From: a candidate division WOR-3 bacterium
Lineage (GTDB): Bacteria > Hydrothermota > Hydrothermia > Hydrothermales > Hydrothermaceae
Direction of reading: 5' to 3'
Assembly: GCA_039803745.1 (NCBI GenBank)
Contig: JBDRZD010000017.1
Coordinates: 1-12,125, forward strand
Length of the DNA stretch: 12,125 nt
Part shown: positions 139 through 8,598 of the stretch, piece after piece
Layout: each line of letters begins with the position of its first letter
How positions within the stretch are numbered: position 1 is the first letter of the stretch
Made by a program: the position numbers and the translations under genes
Notes under the pieces: generated by a model
Told to the model about the DNA's origin: nothing
Seen by the model: only the letters and a program-made list of their open reading frames with translations
Database searches by the model: none

Positions 139-1275
139 TCAATATATAAATTCAAGAACATTGTAAAAAGAAATTAAGGAGGGGGAAGGGGTTATATTTT
201 TTAAAATTGAATTTTTTTGTTTTTCAATTTCTTCAAAATTTAAATCTTTTATATTTTCTTTTTTTGCCTTTTCTAAATAAGGTAAATCTTCAAAAATCAC
301 AAAATCAGAAAAATAAATTATATCGTTTTTATCAAGTGATAAGTCTTTTAAAATTTTAACTGTTTCCTTTATATGTTCCTCATAAAATTTATTTCCACCT
401 ATTCCTATCATTATTATTATTCCAACAGAAATTCCTGAATTTTTTAATTTATGAACTATTTCTTTTAAATTTTCAGGGTCTTGATATTTTTCAAGAAATT
501 CTAAAAGTTTCTTACTCCCGCTTTCAAGCCCTATATAAATCCTTTCAAATCCGTATTTTTTAATCTCTTTAAAAAATTCTCTACTTCTTTTAATTCCAGT
601 AAAAATATCCATGAATGAATATATTTTTCTTTTTTCATCATATTTTCTTATAATTTCAAGAATTTTTAAAAATTCCTTTTCAGGAAGAAGTATTGCATTT
701 GCATCCCCTAAAAAAATTGATTTTCTTAAAGAAATTCCTCTTCCAAGAAAATCATAAACTTTTTTTAGATGCTCTTCAAATTCTTTTTCCTTTTTAATTT
801 TAAAAATCTTCTTTTTATAAAAATTACAGAAAATACATTTTCCATAATTGCACCCCTCAACAACCTGCAGATATATTGAAAGATATTGATCGGGTGGCAA
901 AATTGTTATATCAGAATAAATTTCGTAAAATTTTTTTTCATTCTCTTTCCAGAATTCTTCCCCTTTTTTTATTACAATTTCTGCCTCCTTTTCATCAATT
1001 TCTTCTTTTTCCTTTTTAATTTTTTTATTTTCTAAAATTTTTAAAGAAATTTCATAAATTTTTTTATCAATTTCTTTTTTTTCATCCTTATTTAATTTTT
1101 TTAAAAATGGTCTTCTTTTTTTTAATATCTCACCATTTAAACCCTTTCTATATCCAAATCCATCAATATATGAATAATACCATCTTCCTTCCCAATCATA
1201 ACTTATCAAATTAAAATTTTTATCGCTTAAAATTATTGAACTTTCCTTTAAATATATTCCTTCAAATTCTTTCAA
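139..1275 (-). CDS. Radical SAM protein (COG1032-like, Cx4Cx2C) with an uncharacterised N-terminal region of about 120 aa
   Basis: ILPPDQYLSIYLQVVEGCNYGKCIFCNFY cluster motif (Cys codons 852-826), IFLGDANA and RIYIGLESGS core motifs. The TTG start overlaps the upstream TGA (TTGA, 1275-1272), with GAGG about 12 nt upstream. Confidence 0.85.
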   Translation of the reverse strand: MKEFEGIYLKESSIILSDKNFNLISYDWEGRWYYSYIDGFGYRKGLNGEILKKRRPFLKKLNKDEKKEIDKKIYEISLKILENKKIKKEKEEIDEKEAEIVIKKGEEFWKENEKKFYEIYSDITILPPDQYLSIYLQVVEGCNYGKCIFCNFYKKKIFKIKKEKEFEEHLKKVYDFLGRGISLRKSIFLGDANAILLPEKEFLKILEIIRKYDEKRKIYSFMDIFTGIKRSREFFKEIKKYGFERIYIGLESGSKKLLEFLEKYQDPENLKEIVHKLKNSGISVGIIIMIGIGGNKFYEEHIKETVKILKDLSLDKNDIIYFSDFVIFEDLPYLEKAKKENIKDLNFEEIEKQKNSILKNITPSPSLISFYNVLEFIY

Positions 1276-3887
1276 GGTATGAATATTTCCTCAATAAATC
1301 TTGAAGGAACTTGTGGGATTCCAAATCTTTTTAATGGGTATATAAGATAAACTCTTTCTGTTGCCCTTGTTAGTGCAACATAAAAAAGCCTTCTTTCTTC
1401 TTCAATTTCTTTGATATTAGATAATGCTCTTGAAATTGGAAATGAACCTTCATAAAGTCCGCTTATAAATACAAATTTAAATTCAAGTCCCTTTACTCCA
1501 TGGGCTGTTGAAAGGAAAACGCCTTCTTCCTTTTTTTCATGTTCAAGAAAACTCGAAAGATTTAAAGCATCAATAAATTCCTTTATTTTTTTATATCCTT
1601 TACTCATCATTAATAGTTCATTTATATTTTCAAATTCATCAATTTCATCCCTTTCTTTCAAAAATTTTAAATATTCAGTAACTTCAAGAAATTCTTTCAA
1701 AATTTCATAGGGAGAGAGTTCCTTTGAAAATTCTAAATGTTTTTTTATTGTTTCAGAAATATTTTTAAAATACTTATCTTCTATTTTTCTATTACTTAAA
1801 AGCATATCCCTTGTTTTTGGAATACTTCTCTCAAATCTCAACAAAAATTTCTCAAGTGGAAAATTAAGAAATGTTTTTTTACCAGAAACTAAAAATTCAA
1901 GATAACTTATAAGGGCTTTTACTTCACTTCTTGTATAAAATCCACTTTTACCTATTAAATTATAAGGTACTCCTCCTTTTATAAAAATTTCTTCTATCTT
2001 TCTGCCCTTACTTGTAGTTCTTGTTAGAATTGCTATATCAGAATAATTCACCCCTTTTTTCAAAAGTGAATTTATTTCATTAAATATAAATTTTGCTTCT
2101 TCATTTTCATTTTCCACTTTTATTACTTTCAAAGAATCCTCACCTTTTTTACTTGTAATAAATATTTTATTTTCTCTATCTTTATTTTTCTTTATCAGGT
2201 TCTGGGCAGCAATGTATATTTTTTCCGGCAACCTGAAACTCTTTGTTAACCTGAATTTTTTGCATTCCGGAAAATATTTTTCAAACTTCCGCATCCACTC
2301 TCCTCTTGCACCTCTAAATCCATATATCGCCTGATCCTCATCACCTGTTACATAAAGATTTTTATGATAAGAAGATAAATATAAAACAAACTGGAATTCT
2401 GCAGGATTTATGTCTTGGAATTCATCAACAAAAATATATGTATATTTTTCTGAAAATCTTTTCCTTACATCTTCATATTTCTTTAAAATTTCATTTGCAT
2501 AAAAAAGAATATCATCATAATCTAAAATTTTTGATTCCCTCAATTTTTTTTGATAGATTCCATAAATTTTTGCACAGAACTTCTGCCATTCACTCGTTGC
2601 AACTTCTTCCATCTTTGAAGGGGTTAAAAGGTGTGCCTTTGCAATCTGTATTTCTTCAAGGATCGCTTTAACCTGTTCATTTCCTATTCCCTTTGCACAT
2701 TTTTTTAAAATTTCAATTTGTTCGTTTCTATTTAAAATTTTAAATTCCTCTTTTGGCAGATCAATTCTATCTCCTGCATAGTAAAGTACTAAAAGACCAG
2801 CCCAGTGAAATGTTCCAATATTTAAATTTATAAATTCTTCTTTTGATAAAAGTTTACTTATTTTTTCCCTTAAATCCCTTAAAGTTTTTCCTGCAAAGGT
2901 AAGAACAAGTATATTTTCTGGTGGAACATTTTTTTCTTTTATAAGATATGCAACTTTTCTTGCAAGACATGTGGTTTTTCCACATCCTGCTCCCCCCCAT
3001 ACATGTATAGTTCCTTCACTTTTAATTATCTCTTTTTGTTCTTCTGTAAGATCCTCAAAAATATCAATTTCCTTTTTAAATATTATTTCACTTTCTACTC
3101 CTATAGTTTCAGGTTTTTCAAACAAATCTTCTTTCATCTTTTCACAGGAAGAATATCTTTTTGAAATATCAGGTTCAAGTGCCTTTTTTATAACAACATG
3201 AAAATTTTTTGGAATTGAAGGGGATAAAGGCACGTATTTCCCCTTTTCAATCTTACTTTTAAGTTCAGCAAAATTATCTGCCTTAAAAGGTGGCTCACCT
3301 GTTAGCATCTCATATAAAATGCATCCAACACCAAATATATCTGTTTGAGGAAGATATTTACCTTCCCATCCTTCAGGTGCAAGATAAATTGGTGTTCCTG
3401 CAAAAGAAAGTGAAAGTAAAGCGCCTTTAAAAAGTGCAGCGAGTCCAAAATCAGTTATTTTTACATTTCCAGTTTTTTTTTCAATCAAAATGTTTTCAGG
3501 TTTTATATCTCTATGTAAGAATCCCTTTTTATGGGCATATGAAAGTGCATCAAGAATTTGCACTGTTATATTTTTTATTTTTTCAATTTCAAGTTTCCTT
3601 TCCCCGATTAAATTCCTTAAAGATTCTCCATCAACATACTCCATTACAAGACATATTTTATTTTCAATTATATCAATACTATAAAACCTGACAATATTAT
3701 TATGATTAAGTTCTGATAAAATTCTTGCTTCCTTTTTTAAAATTTCAATTTCTTTTTCATATAATCTTGAAACCTTTATTGCAAATTCTTTATCAATTAT
3801 TTTATCTTTTGCAAGATATACATCTCCAAAAGAACCGCCTCCAAGCCATCTTATTATCTCATATTTCCCAAATTCCTTTCCTATCAT
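1272..3887 (-). CDS. Hanks-type Ser/Thr protein kinase fused to a UvrD/PcrA/Rep-like SF1A helicase
   Basis: aa ~9-256: LGGGSFGDVY, AIK, HRDIKPEN, DFG, GTPIYLAPE, DIFGVG. aa ~277-871: LTEEQ, GGAGCGKT, GTFH, DEFQD, GDEDQAIYGFRGA, SFR, TAHGVKGLEF, EERRLFYVALTRA, PSRF. One uninterrupted frame. Confidence 0.93.
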   Translation of the reverse strand: MIGKEFGKYEIIRWLGGGSFGDVYLAKDKIIDKEFAIKVSRLYEKEIEILKKEARILSELNHNNIVRFYSIDIIENKICLVMEYVDGESLRNLIGERKLEIEKIKNITVQILDALSYAHKKGFLHRDIKPENILIEKKTGNVKITDFGLAALFKGALLSLSFAGTPIYLAPEGWEGKYLPQTDIFGVGCILYEMLTGEPPFKADNFAELKSKIEKGKYVPLSPSIPKNFHVVIKKALEPDISKRYSSCEKMKEDLFEKPETIGVESEIIFKKEIDIFEDLTEEQKEIIKSEGTIHVWGGAGCGKTTCLARKVAYLIKEKNVPPENILVLTFAGKTLRDLREKISKLLSKEEFINLNIGTFHWAGLLVLYYAGDRIDLPKEEFKILNRNEQIEILKKCAKGIGNEQVKAILEEIQIAKAHLLTPSKMEEVATSEWQKFCAKIYGIYQKKLRESKILDYDDILFYANEILKKYEDVRKRFSEKYTYIFVDEFQDINPAEFQFVLYLSSYHKNLYVTGDEDQAIYGFRGARGEWMRKFEKYFPECKKFRLTKSFRLPEKIYIAAQNLIKKNKDRENKIFITSKKGEDSLKVIKVENENEEAKFIFNEINSLLKKGVNYSDIAILTRTTSKGRKIEEIFIKGGVPYNLIGKSGFYTRSEVKALISYLEFLVSGKKTFLNFPLEKFLLRFERSIPKTRDMLLSNRKIEDKYFKNISETIKKHLEFSKELSPYEILKEFLEVTEYLKFLKERDEIDEFENINELLMMSKGYKKIKEFIDALNLSSFLEHEKKEEGVFLSTAHGVKGLEFKFVFISGLYEGSFPISRALSNIKEIEEERRLFYVALTRATERVYLIYPLKRFGIPQVPSRFIEEIFIP

Positions 3888-4648
3888 TTTCCATATTTTC
3901 TCTTTATTTCAGGTATCCATTTTTTAATATTTTTAATTCTTGTTCCATGAGATGGATGGGTTGACAGAAATTCGGGAATTTTATCACCACTTTTTTTCTC
4001 CATCTTCTCCCAGAAACTTAAGGCGCCTTCAAGATTATATCCAGATTTTGCCATAAATATTAATCCTAAATAATCCGCTTCTTCTTCATGCTTTCTTGAA
4101 AACGGTAATAATATTCCGAGCTCTACTGTAACCCCATATGCAATTTTTGCGATTTCAATTGTTTTATGCCTTTCTTTTTGAAGGGCTATTTCAAGAGCCA
4201 TTCCACCGAGCTGTGCTAAAAGAAGTTGGCTCATCCTTTCTCCTCCATGTCTTGCAACAATATGTCCAATCTCATGTCCTATAACAACTGCAAGTTCATC
4301 ATCATTTTCAATTATTTTTAAAAGTCCGGTATAGACGCATACTTTACCACCGGGTAAAGCGAAGGCATTTATAACTTTATCATTATCAATTACTCTAAAA
4401 TCCCATTTTTCCTTTCTCCTTAAACCTGCTGCATTAATTATATTCCTTCCAACCCTTTCAACCGTTTCATTTAAACTTTTATCATCTGAAAATTTTTCAC
4501 TTTTTTTAATTTCCAAAAATGCTTCTTCTCCAAGTGTTCTTTCAATTTCCAAAGGGAAAAGGATGAGTTGTTTTCTTTCAGTATATGGAACAGTCCTGCA
4601 CATATATAAAATTAAAAAAAGTGAAAAAATGTATTTTAAATTTTTCAT
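3884..4648 (-). CDS. M48-family zinc metalloprotease (Oma1/LoiP/YfgC-like), probable lipoprotein
   Basis: INAFALPGG, ELAVVIGHEIGH (HExxH), FSRKHEEEAD, FLSTHPS. The N-terminus has Lys residues, a hydrophobic stretch and Cys17 (LYMC, an atypical lipobox). AAGGAGGT lies upstream. Confidence 0.9.
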   Translation of the reverse strand: MKNLKYIFSLFLILYMCRTVPYTERKQLILFPLEIERTLGEEAFLEIKKSEKFSDDKSLNETVERVGRNIINAAGLRRKEKWDFRVIDNDKVINAFALPGGKVCVYTGLLKIIENDDELAVVIGHEIGHIVARHGGERMSQLLLAQLGGMALEIALQKERHKTIEIAKIAYGVTVELGILLPFSRKHEEEADYLGLIFMAKSGYNLEGALSFWEKMEKKSGDKIPEFLSTHPSHGTRIKNIKKWIPEIKRKYGK

Positions 4649-5151
4649 TTTAACCTCCTTTTACATTCATCACAAATTTTATAATCCTTAAAATCGGTAT
4701 CATGAATTGAATTTGAAAAAGCCATAACACATCTTTTATTTTTACAATGATTAAGTCCTTTTAAATGCCCCAATTCATGGATTATCTCCTTTGCTATTCT
4801 TAAAATTAAAATTTCCTCATTTTCTTTTTTACCATAAAAACTTTCTCTTAATCTTTTTATTGAAATAATTCCCCTTTTACCATTTATACTCTCTGCAACT
4901 CCGAAAACAAAGTTTAATCCCTCAACATAAATATCCTTATCACATATTCCGATCACTTTATCTTCACAATAAGGTACATGCTCTAAAACACATATAGCAT
5001 CATACTGGTTTCTTTTACAATTCAAACAATTTTCAGGGAAAGAAATACTTCCAAGTATATTCACTTTTTCCTCGTAAACTTCCTCAACATAAAATTTTGC
5101 TTTCTCAATATAATCTAAATTTATATCTCCCATCGGAATAAGATATATCAT
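4645..5151 (-). CDS. Archaemetzincin (peptidase M54, AmzA-like) zinc metalloprotease
   Basis: HELGHLKGLNHCKNKRCVMAFSNS...D...CDEC gives HExxHxxGxxH, the Cys4 zinc site and the Met-turn. RNQYDA and LNFVFGVA are family motifs. Start moved to the ATG at 5151 (MIYLIPMG) because the TTG at 5187 lies in the promoter. Confidence 0.88.
   Translation of the reverse strand: MIYLIPMGDINLDYIEKAKFYVEEVYEEKVNILGSISFPENCLNCKRNQYDAICVLEHVPYCEDKVIGICDKDIYVEGLNFVFGVAESINGKRGIISIKRLRESFYGKKENEEILILRIAKEIIHELGHLKGLNHCKNKRCVMAFSNSIHDTDFKDYKICDECKRRLK
4653..4660 (-). promoter_or_regulatory. Shine-Dalgarno site of the M48 protease gene
   Basis: AAGGAGGT on the minus strand, 4 nt before the ATG at 4648, inside the end of the archaemetzincin gene. 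Confidence 0.75.
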
Positions 5152-5158
5152 AATTTTA

Positions 5159-5187
5159 ATTATAATATAAATTGAATTTTTTTTCAA
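5159..5187 (-). promoter_or_regulatory. sigma70-type promoter for the leftward operon, probably leaderless
   Basis: Minus strand TTGAAA (5187-5182), 17-bp spacer, TATAAT (5164-5159), then 7 nt to the ATG at 5151. No SD present. Confidence 0.7.
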
Positions 5188-5201
5188 TTACTCTTTATAA
5201 T
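5172..5201 (+). promoter_or_regulatory. sigma70-type promoter for GTPase-thiI, probably leaderless
   Basis: TTGAAT (5172-5177), 18-bp spacer, TATAAT (5196-5201), then 6 nt to the ATG at 5208. No SD present. Confidence 0.7.
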
Positions 5202-5207
5202 TTAATT

Positions 5208-6200
5208 ATGCCAGCAAATTTGCCACCTCAATATCATGCAGCATATCAAAAATATAGAGAGGCAAAAACCATTGAAGAGAAAATTGCTGCTTTAAAAGAA
5301 ATGTGGGCAGTAATGCCAAAGCATAAAGGGACTGATAAATTACAGGCAGAGATAAAAAGAAAACTGGCACAACTTAAAGAAGAACTGGAGTTAGAAAAAA
5401 AGAGGAAAAAAGGTGGCGGTTTTCAATTCCCTGAAAGGGAAGGGGCAGGGCAAGCCTGTCTTTTAGGTCCACCAAATTCTGGTAAATCAAGCCTTTTAAA
5501 GGTTCTCACAAATGCAAATCCAGAAATTGCAGATTATCCCTTTACAACTCAGACAATAATCCCTGGCATGATGCCATATGAAGATATTAAAATTCAAATT
5601 GTTGATTTGCCTCCTTTTACTGGTGAAGAAGTAATATGGTGGCAAAGGGAAGTTGTTAGGATGTGTGACCTTGTTTTATTTATTCTTGATATTTCAAAGG
5701 ATGACCTGGTGGATGATTTTGAAAAAATAAAAAGTTATCTTGAAACTAAAAATATATTTTTAATAGGTAAAAATGTAAGAAAAGAAGAAGAATTTGGGGG
5801 TCCTGCTAAAAAAAGGACAATACTTGTATTTAACAAATTTGATGTTGAAGGAGCAAATAAAAGGTTTGAAAGTATTAAAGAATTTTTTGAAAAAGAATAT
5901 GATTTAATACCTATTTCCTGTAAAAACCTTTATAATATTGATTCATTAAAGGAAATGATATTTAAAAATCTTGAGATAATAAGAGTTTATACAAAAGAAC
6001 CCGGAAAGCCACCTGATTTAACTGATCCTTTAATTTTGCCTCTTGGTTCGAAAGTTATAGATGCTGCTTATAAACTACATAAAGATTTTGCAGAAAAATT
6101 AAAACATGCGAGAATATGGGGTTCTTCTAAGTTTGGTGGGCAAAGAGTTCCAAAGGATTATATTTTAAAGGATAAAGATATTGTTGAATTTCATATATGA
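5208..6200 (+). CDS. DRG/OBG-family GTPase with C-terminal TGS domain (Rbg1/DRG-like)
   Basis: N-terminal MPANLPPQY...PKHKGTDKL, G1 GPPNSGKS, G2 YPFTT, G3 DLPP, G4 NKFD, TGS tail IIRVYTKEPG...LHKDF...ARIWG...GQRV...LKDKDIVEFH. Start reassigned from TTG 5172 to ATG 5208. Confidence 0.88.
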   Translation: MPANLPPQYHAAYQKYREAKTIEEKIAALKEMWAVMPKHKGTDKLQAEIKRKLAQLKEELELEKKRKKGGGFQFPEREGAGQACLLGPPNSGKSSLLKVLTNANPEIADYPFTTQTIIPGMMPYEDIKIQIVDLPPFTGEEVIWWQREVVRMCDLVLFILDISKDDLVDDFEKIKSYLETKNIFLIGKNVRKEEEFGGPAKKRTILVFNKFDVEGANKRFESIKEFFEKEYDLIPISCKNLYNIDSLKEMIFKNLEIIRVYTKEPGKPPDLTDPLILPLGSKVIDAAYKLHKDFAEKLKHARIWGSSKFGGQRVPKDYILKDKDIVEFHI

Positions 6201-7671: not shown

Positions 7672-8598
7672 ATGAGGAAAGGTTTTTTAATAATTTTTTC
7701 CTTTTTCTATCTTTTTGCAGGTAGTGGAAAATACGGAAGTGAGAGATTTGAATTTGGATACAGTGCAAGGGTTCAGGGGAAAGGTTGCGCATTTATAGCA
7801 GGTGAAGATGATATAACTGCTACATTTTTAAATCCTGCAATTTTATCTTCAATCAATTCTTTAAAAATAGAGGCATCCTATTCAACATATTATGGAGGAA
7901 TTTTATCATCAGGTTCTTTTAATTTATGCTTACCAAATAAAGAAAATACTTTTGGCATCTCTTTATTTTTCATTCAAGTTCCAAAAATTCCTCATACTTA
8001 TAGTTTAGATCCTGATTCAGTTGATAATTTTGATGATATAATACTCAAAGGATATTTTAATTCCTATACATATTGTTTTAATTTTAATTTTTCAAAAAAG
8101 ATAAGAAATTTTGATTTTGGTTTAAATACAAAACTATTCTATGAAGATATTTTAAATGAAAATGGAAAAGGTGTAGGTTTTGATATTGGAATTTTGAAAA
8201 AGATAAATGAAAATACTAAATTTGGAGTTTCAATTTTAAATCTGTTTGGAACATATTTTATATGGACAACAGGTAAAAAAGAAGTTTTTAATCCTCTTTT
8301 AAATACAGGTTTTTCCTTTAATCTTTTTAAGAATCTTTTAATAAATTTTGATTTTTCAATAAAAACTGAAAATATTAAAAATTCTTCATTCTTTAATATT
8401 TCCTTTCTTTCCCTTCATCCAAGATTTGGATTTGAATGGAACTTATTTAAATTTTTAAATTTAAGGGGAGGATTAGAAGAAAGTTTTCCATGTTTTGGGT
8501 TTGGTTTTATTTTTAAAGGTTTGTTATTAGATTATGCTTTGAGATATTCTTTTGATTTAGGAGATTCGCATATAGTTACCCTTTCTTATAAAAGATGA
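7672..8598 (+). CDS. PorV/PorQ-like (UPF0164-type) outer-membrane beta-barrel protein
   Basis: Signal-peptide-like N-terminus, SARVQGKG-AFIA-EDDITATFLNPA (the 'AR..gmG.a..a...D..a...NPA' motif), GVGFDIG, alternating aromatic beta-strands, and a DYA...LGDSHIVTLSY C-terminus. Confidence 0.7.
   Translation: MRKGFLIIFSFFYLFAGSGKYGSERFEFGYSARVQGKGCAFIAGEDDITATFLNPAILSSINSLKIEASYSTYYGGILSSGSFNLCLPNKENTFGISLFFIQVPKIPHTYSLDPDSVDNFDDIILKGYFNSYTYCFNFNFSKKIRNFDFGLNTKLFYEDILNENGKGVGFDIGILKKINENTKFGVSILNLFGTYFIWTTGKKEVFNPLLNTGFSFNLFKNLLINFDFSIKTENIKNSSFFNISFLSLHPRFGFEWNLFKFLNLRGGLEESFPCFGFGFIFKGLLLDYALRYSFDLGDSHIVTLSYKR

Follow-up and report, generated by a model that had tools for sequence, protein, structure and literature searches.

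A Hanks-type Ser/Thr kinase joined to a PcrA/UvrD-type helicase is conserved in an uncultured hot-spring phylum and may be a DNA-tracking signalling enzyme

Here we show that a kinase-helicase (KH) gene in a 12,125-nucleotide stretch of DNA (the window) encodes, in one polypeptide, a complete RD-type Hanks kinase, a flexible linker of ~25 residues and a complete PcrA/UvrD-type SF1A motor. The fusion is a conserved gene and not an assembly artefact, and it is old and conserved in an uncultured hot-spring phylum. We tentatively interpret KH as a DNA-tracking Ser/Thr signalling kinase, that is, a bifunctional, chromosomally inherited genome-maintenance enzyme. Our literature searches found no description of a KH-type kinase-PcrA/UvrD fusion, in agreement with an earlier sequence-only reading of this DNA, which knew of no characterised example. 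Few bacterial routes are known that lead from the state of DNA to protein phosphorylation (YabT and Deinococcus RqkA were the cases found), and such signalling would take a direct, testable form in a kinase built onto a translocating helicase, one that has long been conserved in small genomes from which LexA is often missing. The fusion also gives a first lead to the function of ARPP-1, a domain without known activity.

The KH gene (1272..3887, minus strand; 871 aa) is a single uninterrupted open reading frame with an ATG start and no internal stop. Its Hanks-type RD-class Ser/Thr kinase domain (residues 9-254; 3126..3863, minus strand) is matched by Pfam Pkinase (PF00069; E 1.5e-59, with a score of 202 bits where the cut-off is 31.7). 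A poorly conserved linker, predicted to be disordered (residues 255-279; 3051..3125, minus strand), leads to the helicase domains 1A/1B (residues 280-540; 2268..3050, minus strand), matched by UvrD-helicase (PF00580; 1e-62), and 2A/2B (residues 541-871; 1275..2267, minus strand), where UvrD_C (PF13361; 1.1e-46) covers residues 702-850. The remaining seven of the ten Pfam families on KH consist of overlapping models of kinase-like or P-loop type; Pfam reports neither PASTA nor NERD nor any further domain, and the AlphaFold2 model of KH, a soluble protein, shows no hydrophobic helix. An intact Ser/Thr kinase fused to a PcrA/UvrD-like helicase, free of transmembrane, PASTA or NERD elements, was what the sequence-only reading had described; the Pfam domains and motif residues in one reading frame bear this out, and its residue numbering agrees with an alignment of 119 KH proteins. 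That reading did not include the ARPP-1 partner, the lost PcrA C-terminal tail or the independent kinase-helicase fusions found elsewhere. Three genes identified by Pfam share the strand of KH in a run joined by 4-nt overlaps, which opens with a Peptidase_M54 (archaemetzincin-like) gene (4645..5187, minus strand), continues with a Peptidase_M48 gene (3884..4648, minus strand) that overlaps the KH start directly upstream, and extends downstream to a radical SAM gene (139..1275, minus strand) that overlaps the KH stop.

Both Pfam domains are present in all 120 relatives among the matches listed, with identities of 35-99% and on contigs of up to 2.8 Mb, and the linker is spanned without indels by contigs of runs X10 (2707-3236) and X12 (2983-3673), which belong to two other studies; run X2 yielded short partial pieces only. 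At least 79 of the 201 genomes sampled from the phylum (~40%) carry KH, counted among the matches listed, with 76 weaker matches outside this count, and clustering at 50% gives ~34 KH representatives. This breadth, together with the bridging of the linker by contigs from two other studies, establishes that the join is not an artefact. The sequence-only reading had named a chimeric join or a stop in the linker, and domains unlinked in relatives, as grounds for doubt; neither was found in the bridging contigs, the reading frame of the gene or the 120 relatives listed. Three shorter KH matches (P0127, P0143 and P0154) cross the junction or end at it, in the manner of contig-end fragments. In the loci fetched there is a single KH copy per genome, and carrier genomes measure 1.2-3 Mb. 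One KH sub-family carries the source label Thermosulfidibacter takaii, on MAG records, and an experimental system may exist if the gene is present in the cultured strain. A search of genome contigs with the Thermosulfidibacter-type P0142 was dominated by generic kinase motifs, and the long matches that were followed up proved to be tandem kinase-TPR or PD40 genes and not fusions.

Conservation was assessed in 119 of 121 KH proteins, two partial sequences (721 and 612 aa) having been dropped. All hallmarks of the Hanks RD class are present in KH: the Gly loop (16-21), the VAIK Lys (K38), the alpha-C Glu (E53), HRD (125-127), the Asn (N132), DFG (146-148), APE (170-172), the subdomain IX Asp and the subdomain XI Arg. 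K38, E53, H125-R126-D127, N132, D146-F147-G148, T165, E172, D183 and R244 are identical in 119/119 proteins. The candidate phosphoacceptors of the activation loop are S159, S161 and T165, of which S159 is kept in 98/119 and S161 in 110/119. SF1A motifs Q, I, Ia, II, III, IV, V and VI are likewise all present, with residues retained in 117-119 of the 119 proteins. Domains 1A/1B hold Q284, Walker A (298-306, with K304), motif Ia, motif II (DEFQD, 488-492) and motif III (515-527), and domains 2A/2B hold motif IV (R552), motif V (793-803) and motif VI (830-842). G301/G303/K304/T305, D488-E489, Q519, R552, H796 and K799-G800 are found in 119/119, R832-R833 and T840-R841 in 118/119, and Q284 and R525 in 117/119. 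The linker has few conserved columns in the same alignment, and the divergent, helical 2B region (~650-785) is the least conserved stretch of the helicase half. Judged by these residues, both halves look catalytically competent and are under purifying selection.

The AlphaFold2 model of KH (mean pLDDT 86, pTM 0.56) has both modules well folded, with disorder in the linker and the activation loop; linker residues 259-272 have pLDDT <50, and the pTM value means that the kinase-helicase interface is not defined in the model. Foldseek aligned 620-650 columns of the model to whole UvrD/PcrA/Rep chains (TM 0.67-0.72, normalised by target), in line with a four-subdomain 1A/1B/2A/2B fold of the helicase half. 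The best solved match of this half is PcrA (1pjr, 1.3e-82), and those of the kinase half are bacterial Stk (4eqm/9ymt, 2e-41) and StkP (1e-39).

In a FastTree phylogeny (automatic alignment, 60% occupancy trim, arbitrary rooting) all 49 fused helicase domains fall into a single clade (support 0.992), separate from 54 stand-alone helicases, which indicates that the fusion arose once. The sister of this clade has a support of only 0.43, and the candidate origins of the helicase half are duplication of an in-phylum PcrA and import. KH subclades match class labels in a first tree, since superseded by the FastTree tree; it was built by a quick method, and among its rows L071 is an artefact (wrong ORF) and the KH row L043 is unresolved. 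Inheritance of the gene looks vertical and chromosomal. Carrier genomes retain a separate stand-alone PcrA beside KH, and this includes the genome of the window, for which the sequence-only reading had suggested checking for a separate pcrA/uvrD. KH and this PcrA-like protein are 34% identical over KH residues 272-865, and 7 residues follow the PSRF motif in KH vs 70 in PcrA; in the 15 KH sequences where PSRF could be located, the protein stops 7-12 residues past it. KH ends so soon after PSRF that the C-terminal tail of PcrA/UvrD is absent. We take this extension to be a Tudor-like, RNA-polymerase-binding and partner-binding domain, and its loss would suggest another mode of control for KH. 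A role as an SOS replacement was considered and dropped: LexA, counted at E <= 1e-33, is present in 39/79 genomes with KH and 64/122 without it, an absence of association from which it follows that KH is not simply an SOS substitute. No LexA was found in the genome of the window or in its family.

The genomic surroundings of KH are those of a housekeeping gene in 21/21 loci (e.g. tRNA synthetases, Mur ligase, NAD synthase and panC), with no recognisable DNA-repair gene among the neighbours in these loci. Peptidase_M48 is conserved beside KH only within the genus of the window. A radical SAM gene adjoins KH in 5/21 loci; the downstream copies of the window and of loci L024, L025 and L036 cluster together, and the upstream copy of L029 does not. 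As this gene order is kept only within the genus, a functional M54-M48-KH-radical SAM module was rejected.

The sole recurrent partner of KH is ARPP-1 (PF20208), a domain with an invariant Cys and Gln. Adjacent to and co-directional with KH both in 7/21 fetched loci and in 30 of the 32 genomes that have the two genes on one contig, it is an operon neighbour of KH in nine families. It is present in 75 of the 79 genomes with KH among the matches listed vs 19 of the 122 without, as counted over related, non-independent genomes. One ARPP-1 clade (A) co-occurs with KH, and it is mainly in this KH-associated clade that S169 and S173 (G145 protein numbering) are conserved. In the class of the window the two genes are unlinked, the KH of the window being flanked by the M48 and radical SAM genes, and the unlinked ARPPs of this class group in one clade with the KH-linked ones (100/100 support). 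The ARPP of the window's own genome lies at the end of contig C4 and is assigned to clade A because its genus is placed there, the partial own copy being outside the tree. KH lacks an adjacent clade-A ARPP here, and the window thus represents the co-occurring but unlinked form. A predicted complex of ARPP G145 with the helicase half (273-870) of its adjacent KH scored 0.00 in both runs, which were made without controls and count neither for nor against an interaction.

In the mechanism that we tentatively favour, the helicase half would bind and translocate on single-stranded DNA; binding or translocation would gather kinase domains on the DNA and permit trans-autophosphorylation of the activation loop (S159/S161/T165), and the activated kinase would then phosphorylate DNA-bound targets, with ARPP-1 as the most likely partner or substrate. 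The whole would amount to YabT-like DNA-dependent kinase signalling in which a motor replaces a passive DNA-binding patch. A bolder version, which we consider rather unlikely, is that KH and clade-A ARPP form an unrecognised bacterial DNA-lesion signalling pathway, in which the helicase carries the kinase along single-stranded DNA, the invariant ARPP Cys marks or crosslinks damaged sugars, and the encounter of KH with ARPP leads to protein phosphorylation. In the available text of PMC9503650, the describers of ARPP propose a covalent reaction with sugar moieties and speculate that it is SRAP-like. Such a pathway, if real, would give bacteria a motor-driven equivalent of the eukaryotic DNA-damage kinases, and the recurrent independent kinase-helicase fusions would point to a general, overlooked design.

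Several other explanations were weighed. The kinase may act mainly on the helicase half of its own protein, either in cis or between dimer partners, so that phosphorylation serves as an on/off switch of the motor, e.g. via 2B or dimerisation, and KH is a specialised PcrA paralogue and not a signalling enzyme. We hold this to be a minority possibility, with the covalent tether and its short flexible linker in its favour, together with the loss of the C-terminal tail of stand-alone PcrA and the placement of the lowest helicase conservation in 2B (~650-785). The 2B region governs activity in UvrD, Rep and PcrA. Self-regulation nevertheless leaves the conserved ARPP pairing unexplained, and a full Hanks kinase, invariant in 119/119 proteins, would be a costly regulator for a single substrate.

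It is improbable, in our estimation, that KH belongs to an anti-phage or conflict system in which it would sense foreign or damaged nucleic acid together with ARPP and impose growth arrest by phosphorylation, a mode of action proposed for defence kinases. ARPP was first described within predicted ADP-ribose-centred conflict systems, according to the available text of PMC9503650, and PADLOC profiles match both halves of KH (GajB 8.6e-83, RTasHel 5.7e-83, mad6 1.1e-72 and PD-T4-6 1.1e-65). These matches are however domain-level, one half each, as the GajB profiles cover residues 277-868 only and the PD-T4-6 profile residues 3-257 only, and the three KH neighbours tested in the window gave no PADLOC match. 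The position of KH among housekeeping genes in all 21 loci, a tree that follows taxonomy and the single copy per genome in the fetched loci make a poor fit to the sporadic, island-borne nature of defence genes, and the gene is kept in genomes of only 1.2-3 Mb. The abortive-infection option offered by the sequence-only reading finds no backing in these loci, this tree or these neighbours.

Slightly less probable still is a stress or second-messenger node, in which KH and ARPP would report the state of nucleic acids or nucleotides to c-di-AMP or (p)ppGpp metabolism, outside DNA repair. In 6/6 ARPP loci of the window's order, own genome included, the gene after ARPP belongs to one cluster (253 aa), and its member in the window's own genome, which shares 4 nt with ARPP, encodes a CdaA-type diadenylate cyclase (DAC 2.1e-38, with CdaA_N); RelA/SpoT takes this position in two other families. 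Such neighbours suggest nucleotide signalling as much as DNA lesions; yet they adjoin ARPP and not KH, each pairing is confined to one or two families, and no such gene adjoins KH in the 21 loci. Finally, an assembly chimera or a recent accidental fusion without function can be dismissed, as nothing was found in its favour and it is refuted by the bridging of the linker by independent contigs, by the conservation of the architecture across the phylum and by the invariant catalytic residues of both halves.

Comparison with known systems places KH apart from each of them. With PcrA/UvrD/Rep (PDB 1pjr, 2is1, 4c30, 1uaa and 9dci) it has in common all helicase motifs and the whole-chain fold, but it adds an N-terminal kinase of ~255 residues, lacks the C-terminal tail, has a divergent 2B and forms a separate clade. 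PknB/Stk1/StkP-type kinases resemble the kinase half, to which they are the best solved matches, in being RD-type with Ser/Thr in the activation loop, whereas KH has neither transmembrane segment nor PASTA domains; no PP2C_2 phosphatase (PF13672) was found in the genome, which is 93.5% complete. GajB of Gabija is UvrD-like and matches the helicase half, but neither a GajA-like nor another PADLOC partner lies next to KH, and the PD-T4-6/mad6 kinases match the kinase half, while KH has no defence-island context in the 21 loci and no sporadic distribution.

Other bacterial kinase-helicase fusions exist, e.g. P0158 (963 aa), with a Hanks kinase N-terminal to the helicase. In the tree the P0158 helicase falls among the stand-alone helicases, apart from KH (support 0.955); P0158 is therefore an independent fusion, and bacteria have joined a kinase to a helicase more than once. 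In Atlas clusters such fusions are commonest in Acidobacteriota, and they also include Pkinase joined to AAA_11/12, Helicase_C_2 or Viral_helicase1; apart from P0158 these are leads from cluster annotation and involve other helicase families. The closest functional parallel may be YabT of Bacillus subtilis, which the available text of PMC3708118 and PMC6333020 presents as a DNA-activated Hanks kinase acting on RecA, SsbA and YabA. Like KH, YabT has no extracellular sensor and couples its Hanks kinase to an element that binds DNA, and it serves as the model for DNA-dependent trans-autophosphorylation. In YabT that element is a short basic juxtamembrane stretch, in a protein anchored by a C-terminal transmembrane helix, whereas in the soluble KH a complete ATP-driven motor follows the kinase. 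KH may thus work like YabT from outside the YabT family, the resemblance being one of function only.

The gene at 1272-3887 (minus strand) encodes a real, conserved and uncharacterised kinase-helicase fusion (KH; product P0001, 871 aa) built from two well-known kinds of enzyme. Here we show that KH consists of two intact enzymes on a flexible tether with one ancient origin, and that it is kept beside PcrA, minus the PcrA C-terminal tail, in a housekeeping context and with a link to the ARPP-1 domain. Full-text searches of open-access papers and bioRxiv turned up no account of a kinase-UvrD fusion, and public annotations read "UvrD-helicase domain-containing protein", "protein kinase domain-containing protein" or "PcrA".

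ORF calling and Pfam place KH (871 codons) among four minus-strand genes arranged head to tail with 4-nt overlaps, the others being Peptidase_M54 (4645-5187), Peptidase_M48 (3884-4648) and a radical SAM gene (139-1275). G+C content is about 25-30% across the window, and the plus strand of its right side carries housekeeping genes (Pfam: a GTPase with a TGS domain, ThiI, TPR-PPIase, TyrRS and Dxr). A 308-aa plus-strand ORF (7672-8598), hydrophobic at its N-terminus and unmatched in Pfam, is conserved in a same-genus locus, L024. The TTG starts called for the divergent genes at 4645-5187 (-) and 5172-6200 (+) make these genes share 16 nt (5172-5187); both calls probably lie too far upstream, so that the actual promoter region between the genes is likely to be wider.

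In P0001, Pfam detects Pkinase (residues 9-254), UvrD-helicase (280-540) and UvrD_C (702-850), all far above cut-off, and no additional domain type. The residue numbering of the sequence-only reading proved right in an alignment of 119 of the 121 family proteins, two partial ones being left out. Kinase residues K38, E53, H125/R126/D127, N132, D146-F-G, T165 and E172 and helicase residues G301/G303/K304/T305, D488/E489, Q519, R552, H796 and K799/G800 are present in 119/119, R832/R833 in 118/119, and Q284 and R525 in 117/119; the activation-loop serines S159 and S161 are found in 98/119 and 110/119, respectively. An AlphaFold2 model (59-row alignment; mean pLDDT 86, pTM 0.56) drops under a pLDDT of 50 only in the activation loop (151-164), in the linker (259-272) and in two short loops. 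It thus predicts two well-folded modules joined by a flexible tether, and no kinase-helicase interface is fixed with confidence. The helicase half aligns with whole UvrD, PcrA and Rep chains over 620-650 columns (best sequence match PcrA 1pjr, 1.3e-82), and the kinase half is nearest to bacterial Stk/StkP kinases (2e-41).

Both domains are present in all 120 relatives listed (35-99% identity, mostly 835-910 aa, on contigs of up to 2.8 Mb). In a sample of 201 genomes of the window's phylum, at least 79 have a match that begins in the kinase half and extends into the helicase; this is a minimum, as 76 weaker matches lie outside those listed. Hot-spring metagenome contigs from two other studies run through the linker codons (nt 3051-3125) with no indel (runs X10, 2707-3236, and X12, 2983-3673). 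A library of 1.84 billion representatives clustered at 50% identity contains about 30 proteins that align with residues 1-870 as a single stretch, plus four partial matches; ranking below them are multi-kinase giants and stand-alone helicases scoring 290-330 bits. P0230 and P0264, both stand-alone UvrD-type representatives about 1000 aa long, match the KH query in two stretches each; in P0230, Hint and Intein_splicing matches lie between the helicase motifs, which makes it an intein-containing UvrD.

A FastTree phylogeny of 104 helicase domains (49 from KH, 20 of them taken from loci and 29 from representatives; 18 from stand-alone PcrA proteins within the phylum; 36 from stand-alone representatives; and one from another fusion, P0158) placed 49/49 KH domains in one clade (support 0.992) with zero stand-alone members inside. 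In a quick IQ-TREE of 39 rows, 19 of 20 KH rows group (support 84; one row unresolved, one row an artefact) and two KH subclades agree with the class labels of the genomes. The single clade and matching subclades indicate a single origin of the fusion and mostly vertical inheritance. Members are labelled candidate division WOR-3, Hydrothermales and TA06/Stahlbacteria, with a nested subclade of Thermosulfidibacter/Thermosulfidibacteraceae and "Aquificota" MAGs. The helicase of P0158 (963 aa; Pkinase 13-276, UvrD 326-929) groups with stand-alone helicases (support 0.955, FastTree), making this fusion independent of KH. Feature-based leads in the ESM Atlas comprise further Pkinase + UvrD clusters, Acidobacteriota being commonest, one Pkinase + AAA_11/AAA_12 cluster of 473 members, and Pkinase combined with Helicase_C_2 (181 members, Chloroflexota commonest) or Viral_helicase1 (90 members). 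Fusing a kinase to a helicase looks like a recurrent bacterial design.

The window's genome also encodes a separate pcrA/uvrD, a point the earlier reading had left to a genome check: a stand-alone PcrA-like gene (685 aa), besides a third UvrD-family match. KH and this PcrA share 34% identity over KH residues 272-865, but after the PSRF motif KH has 7 residues and PcrA 70; this PcrA tail is probably the Tudor-like domain through which PcrA/UvrD bind RNA polymerase. Besides KH, a single Hanks kinase of the genome exceeds the cut-off (482 aa, without further Pfam domain). Its gene immediately follows and overlaps an FHA-GGDEF gene (L046:826-3085, contig C6), an arrangement that hints at phospho-dependent coupling to c-di-GMP synthesis. 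One FHA match was found in this genome (93.5% complete), and none to PP2C_2 or LexA (TIGR00498); LexA was likewise without a match in the four other genomes of the window genome's family (f1), and in the sister family gave sub-threshold matches only in 4/6 genomes and none in 2/6. Across the phylum, LexA presence showed no relationship with that of KH.

When the window and 20 loci fetched from diverse carriers were compared, KH neighbours varied by locus and were housekeeping genes, among them GltX, a Mur ligase, NAD synthase, PanC, BioY and a POR subunit. The M54-M48-KH-radical SAM order is restricted to the genus. A radical SAM gene adjoins KH in 5/21 loci: those downstream in the window, L024, L025 and L036 form one BLAST cluster (the L036 copy with a B12-binding domain), and the upstream gene of L029 lies outside it. 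The sole recurrent neighbour is ARPP-1 (PF20208), directly upstream and co-directional in 7/21 loci. ARPP-1 occurs in 94 of the 201 phylum genomes, 75 with KH and 19 in which KH was not found among the matches listed; in 103 neither was found, and four (G148, G178, G192 and G115; 130-320 contigs) have KH without an ARPP match. As the genomes are related, these counts are descriptive rather than a statistical test. Where both genes have listed coordinates on one contig (32 genomes), they are adjacent on the same strand in 30, ARPP lying upstream in 28 and downstream in 2; these pairs cover nine families, all outside the window's class. The window's genome carries its ARPP away from KH, truncated by the end of contig C4, and so represents a "co-occurring but unlinked" state.

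An ARPP tree (25 rows) resolves two clades (100/100 support each): clade A, to which every KH-linked copy (7) and every unlinked copy of the window's class (13) belongs, and clade B with second paralogues and a copy from a KH-less genome. Iyer, Burroughs and Aravind described ARPP, a domain in which one Cys and one Gln are absolutely conserved, proposed that it acts on sugar moieties, possibly by SRAP-like covalent crosslinking, and reported it with ARG/phosphatase systems, HIRAN, WYL or a deacetylase; passages of their paper on the domain name no kinase or UvrD partner (PMC9503650). In our alignment Cys106 and Gln84 (G145 protein numbering) are invariant, and both clades share N20, P25, G76, E77, Q84, R86, C106, E108, R111, W112, R130, Q151, W155, T171, G200 and Y232 (L034:5093-6001 numbering). 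L162, S169, S173 and D176 are conserved mainly in clade A (clade B having five sequences only), making S169 and S173 candidate phospho-acceptors. In the window's order, one 253-aa gene cluster comes after clade-A ARPP in 6/6 loci (L044, L048-L052). In the window's genome (L044:734-2253, contig C4 end) this gene overlaps ARPP by 4 nt and encodes a CdaA-type diadenylate cyclase (DAC, 2.1e-38, plus CdaA_N), a Pfam call on this member only, the other five being joined via BLAST clustering. Two other families of the class have, after ARPP and on its strand, a gene for a RelA/SpoT (p)ppGpp synthetase-hydrolase (L053:4989-7969, G144; L054:2636-5870, G182).

We tentatively propose, by analogy with YabT, that KH is a DNA-loaded motor activating its kinase toward DNA-associated proteins. 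The motor half would load on single-stranded DNA; loading would concentrate or activate the kinase through trans-autophosphorylation of S159/S161/T165; and the active kinase would phosphorylate DNA-associated proteins, with ARPP as prime candidate. That KH is instead a helicase under the control of its own kinase seems to us rather unlikely. A defence or conflict system, an option raised from the sequence alone, is improbable: its only support is that PADLOC profiles match the KH halves separately, at domain level (GajB and RTasHel; mad6 and PD-T4-6), and that ARPP was first described in conflict systems, but the three KH neighbours tested in the window gave zero PADLOC matches, and the housekeeping context and mostly vertical inheritance of KH speak against it. 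The ARPP-CdaA and ARPP-RelA/SpoT pairs would fit a link of KH to nucleotide second messengers, which we likewise regard as improbable. An artefactual fusion is extremely unlikely, the join being conserved in relatives and its linker crossed by independent contigs.

The closest working precedent for the proposed mechanism is Bacillus subtilis YabT, a Hanks kinase that cannot trans-autophosphorylate without its DNA-binding stretch and whose reported substrates are RecA, SsbA and YabA (PMC3708118, PMC6333020). Deinococcus RqkA is another kinase responsive to DNA damage (PMC6052341); KH lies outside the YabT family and may work in a similar way.
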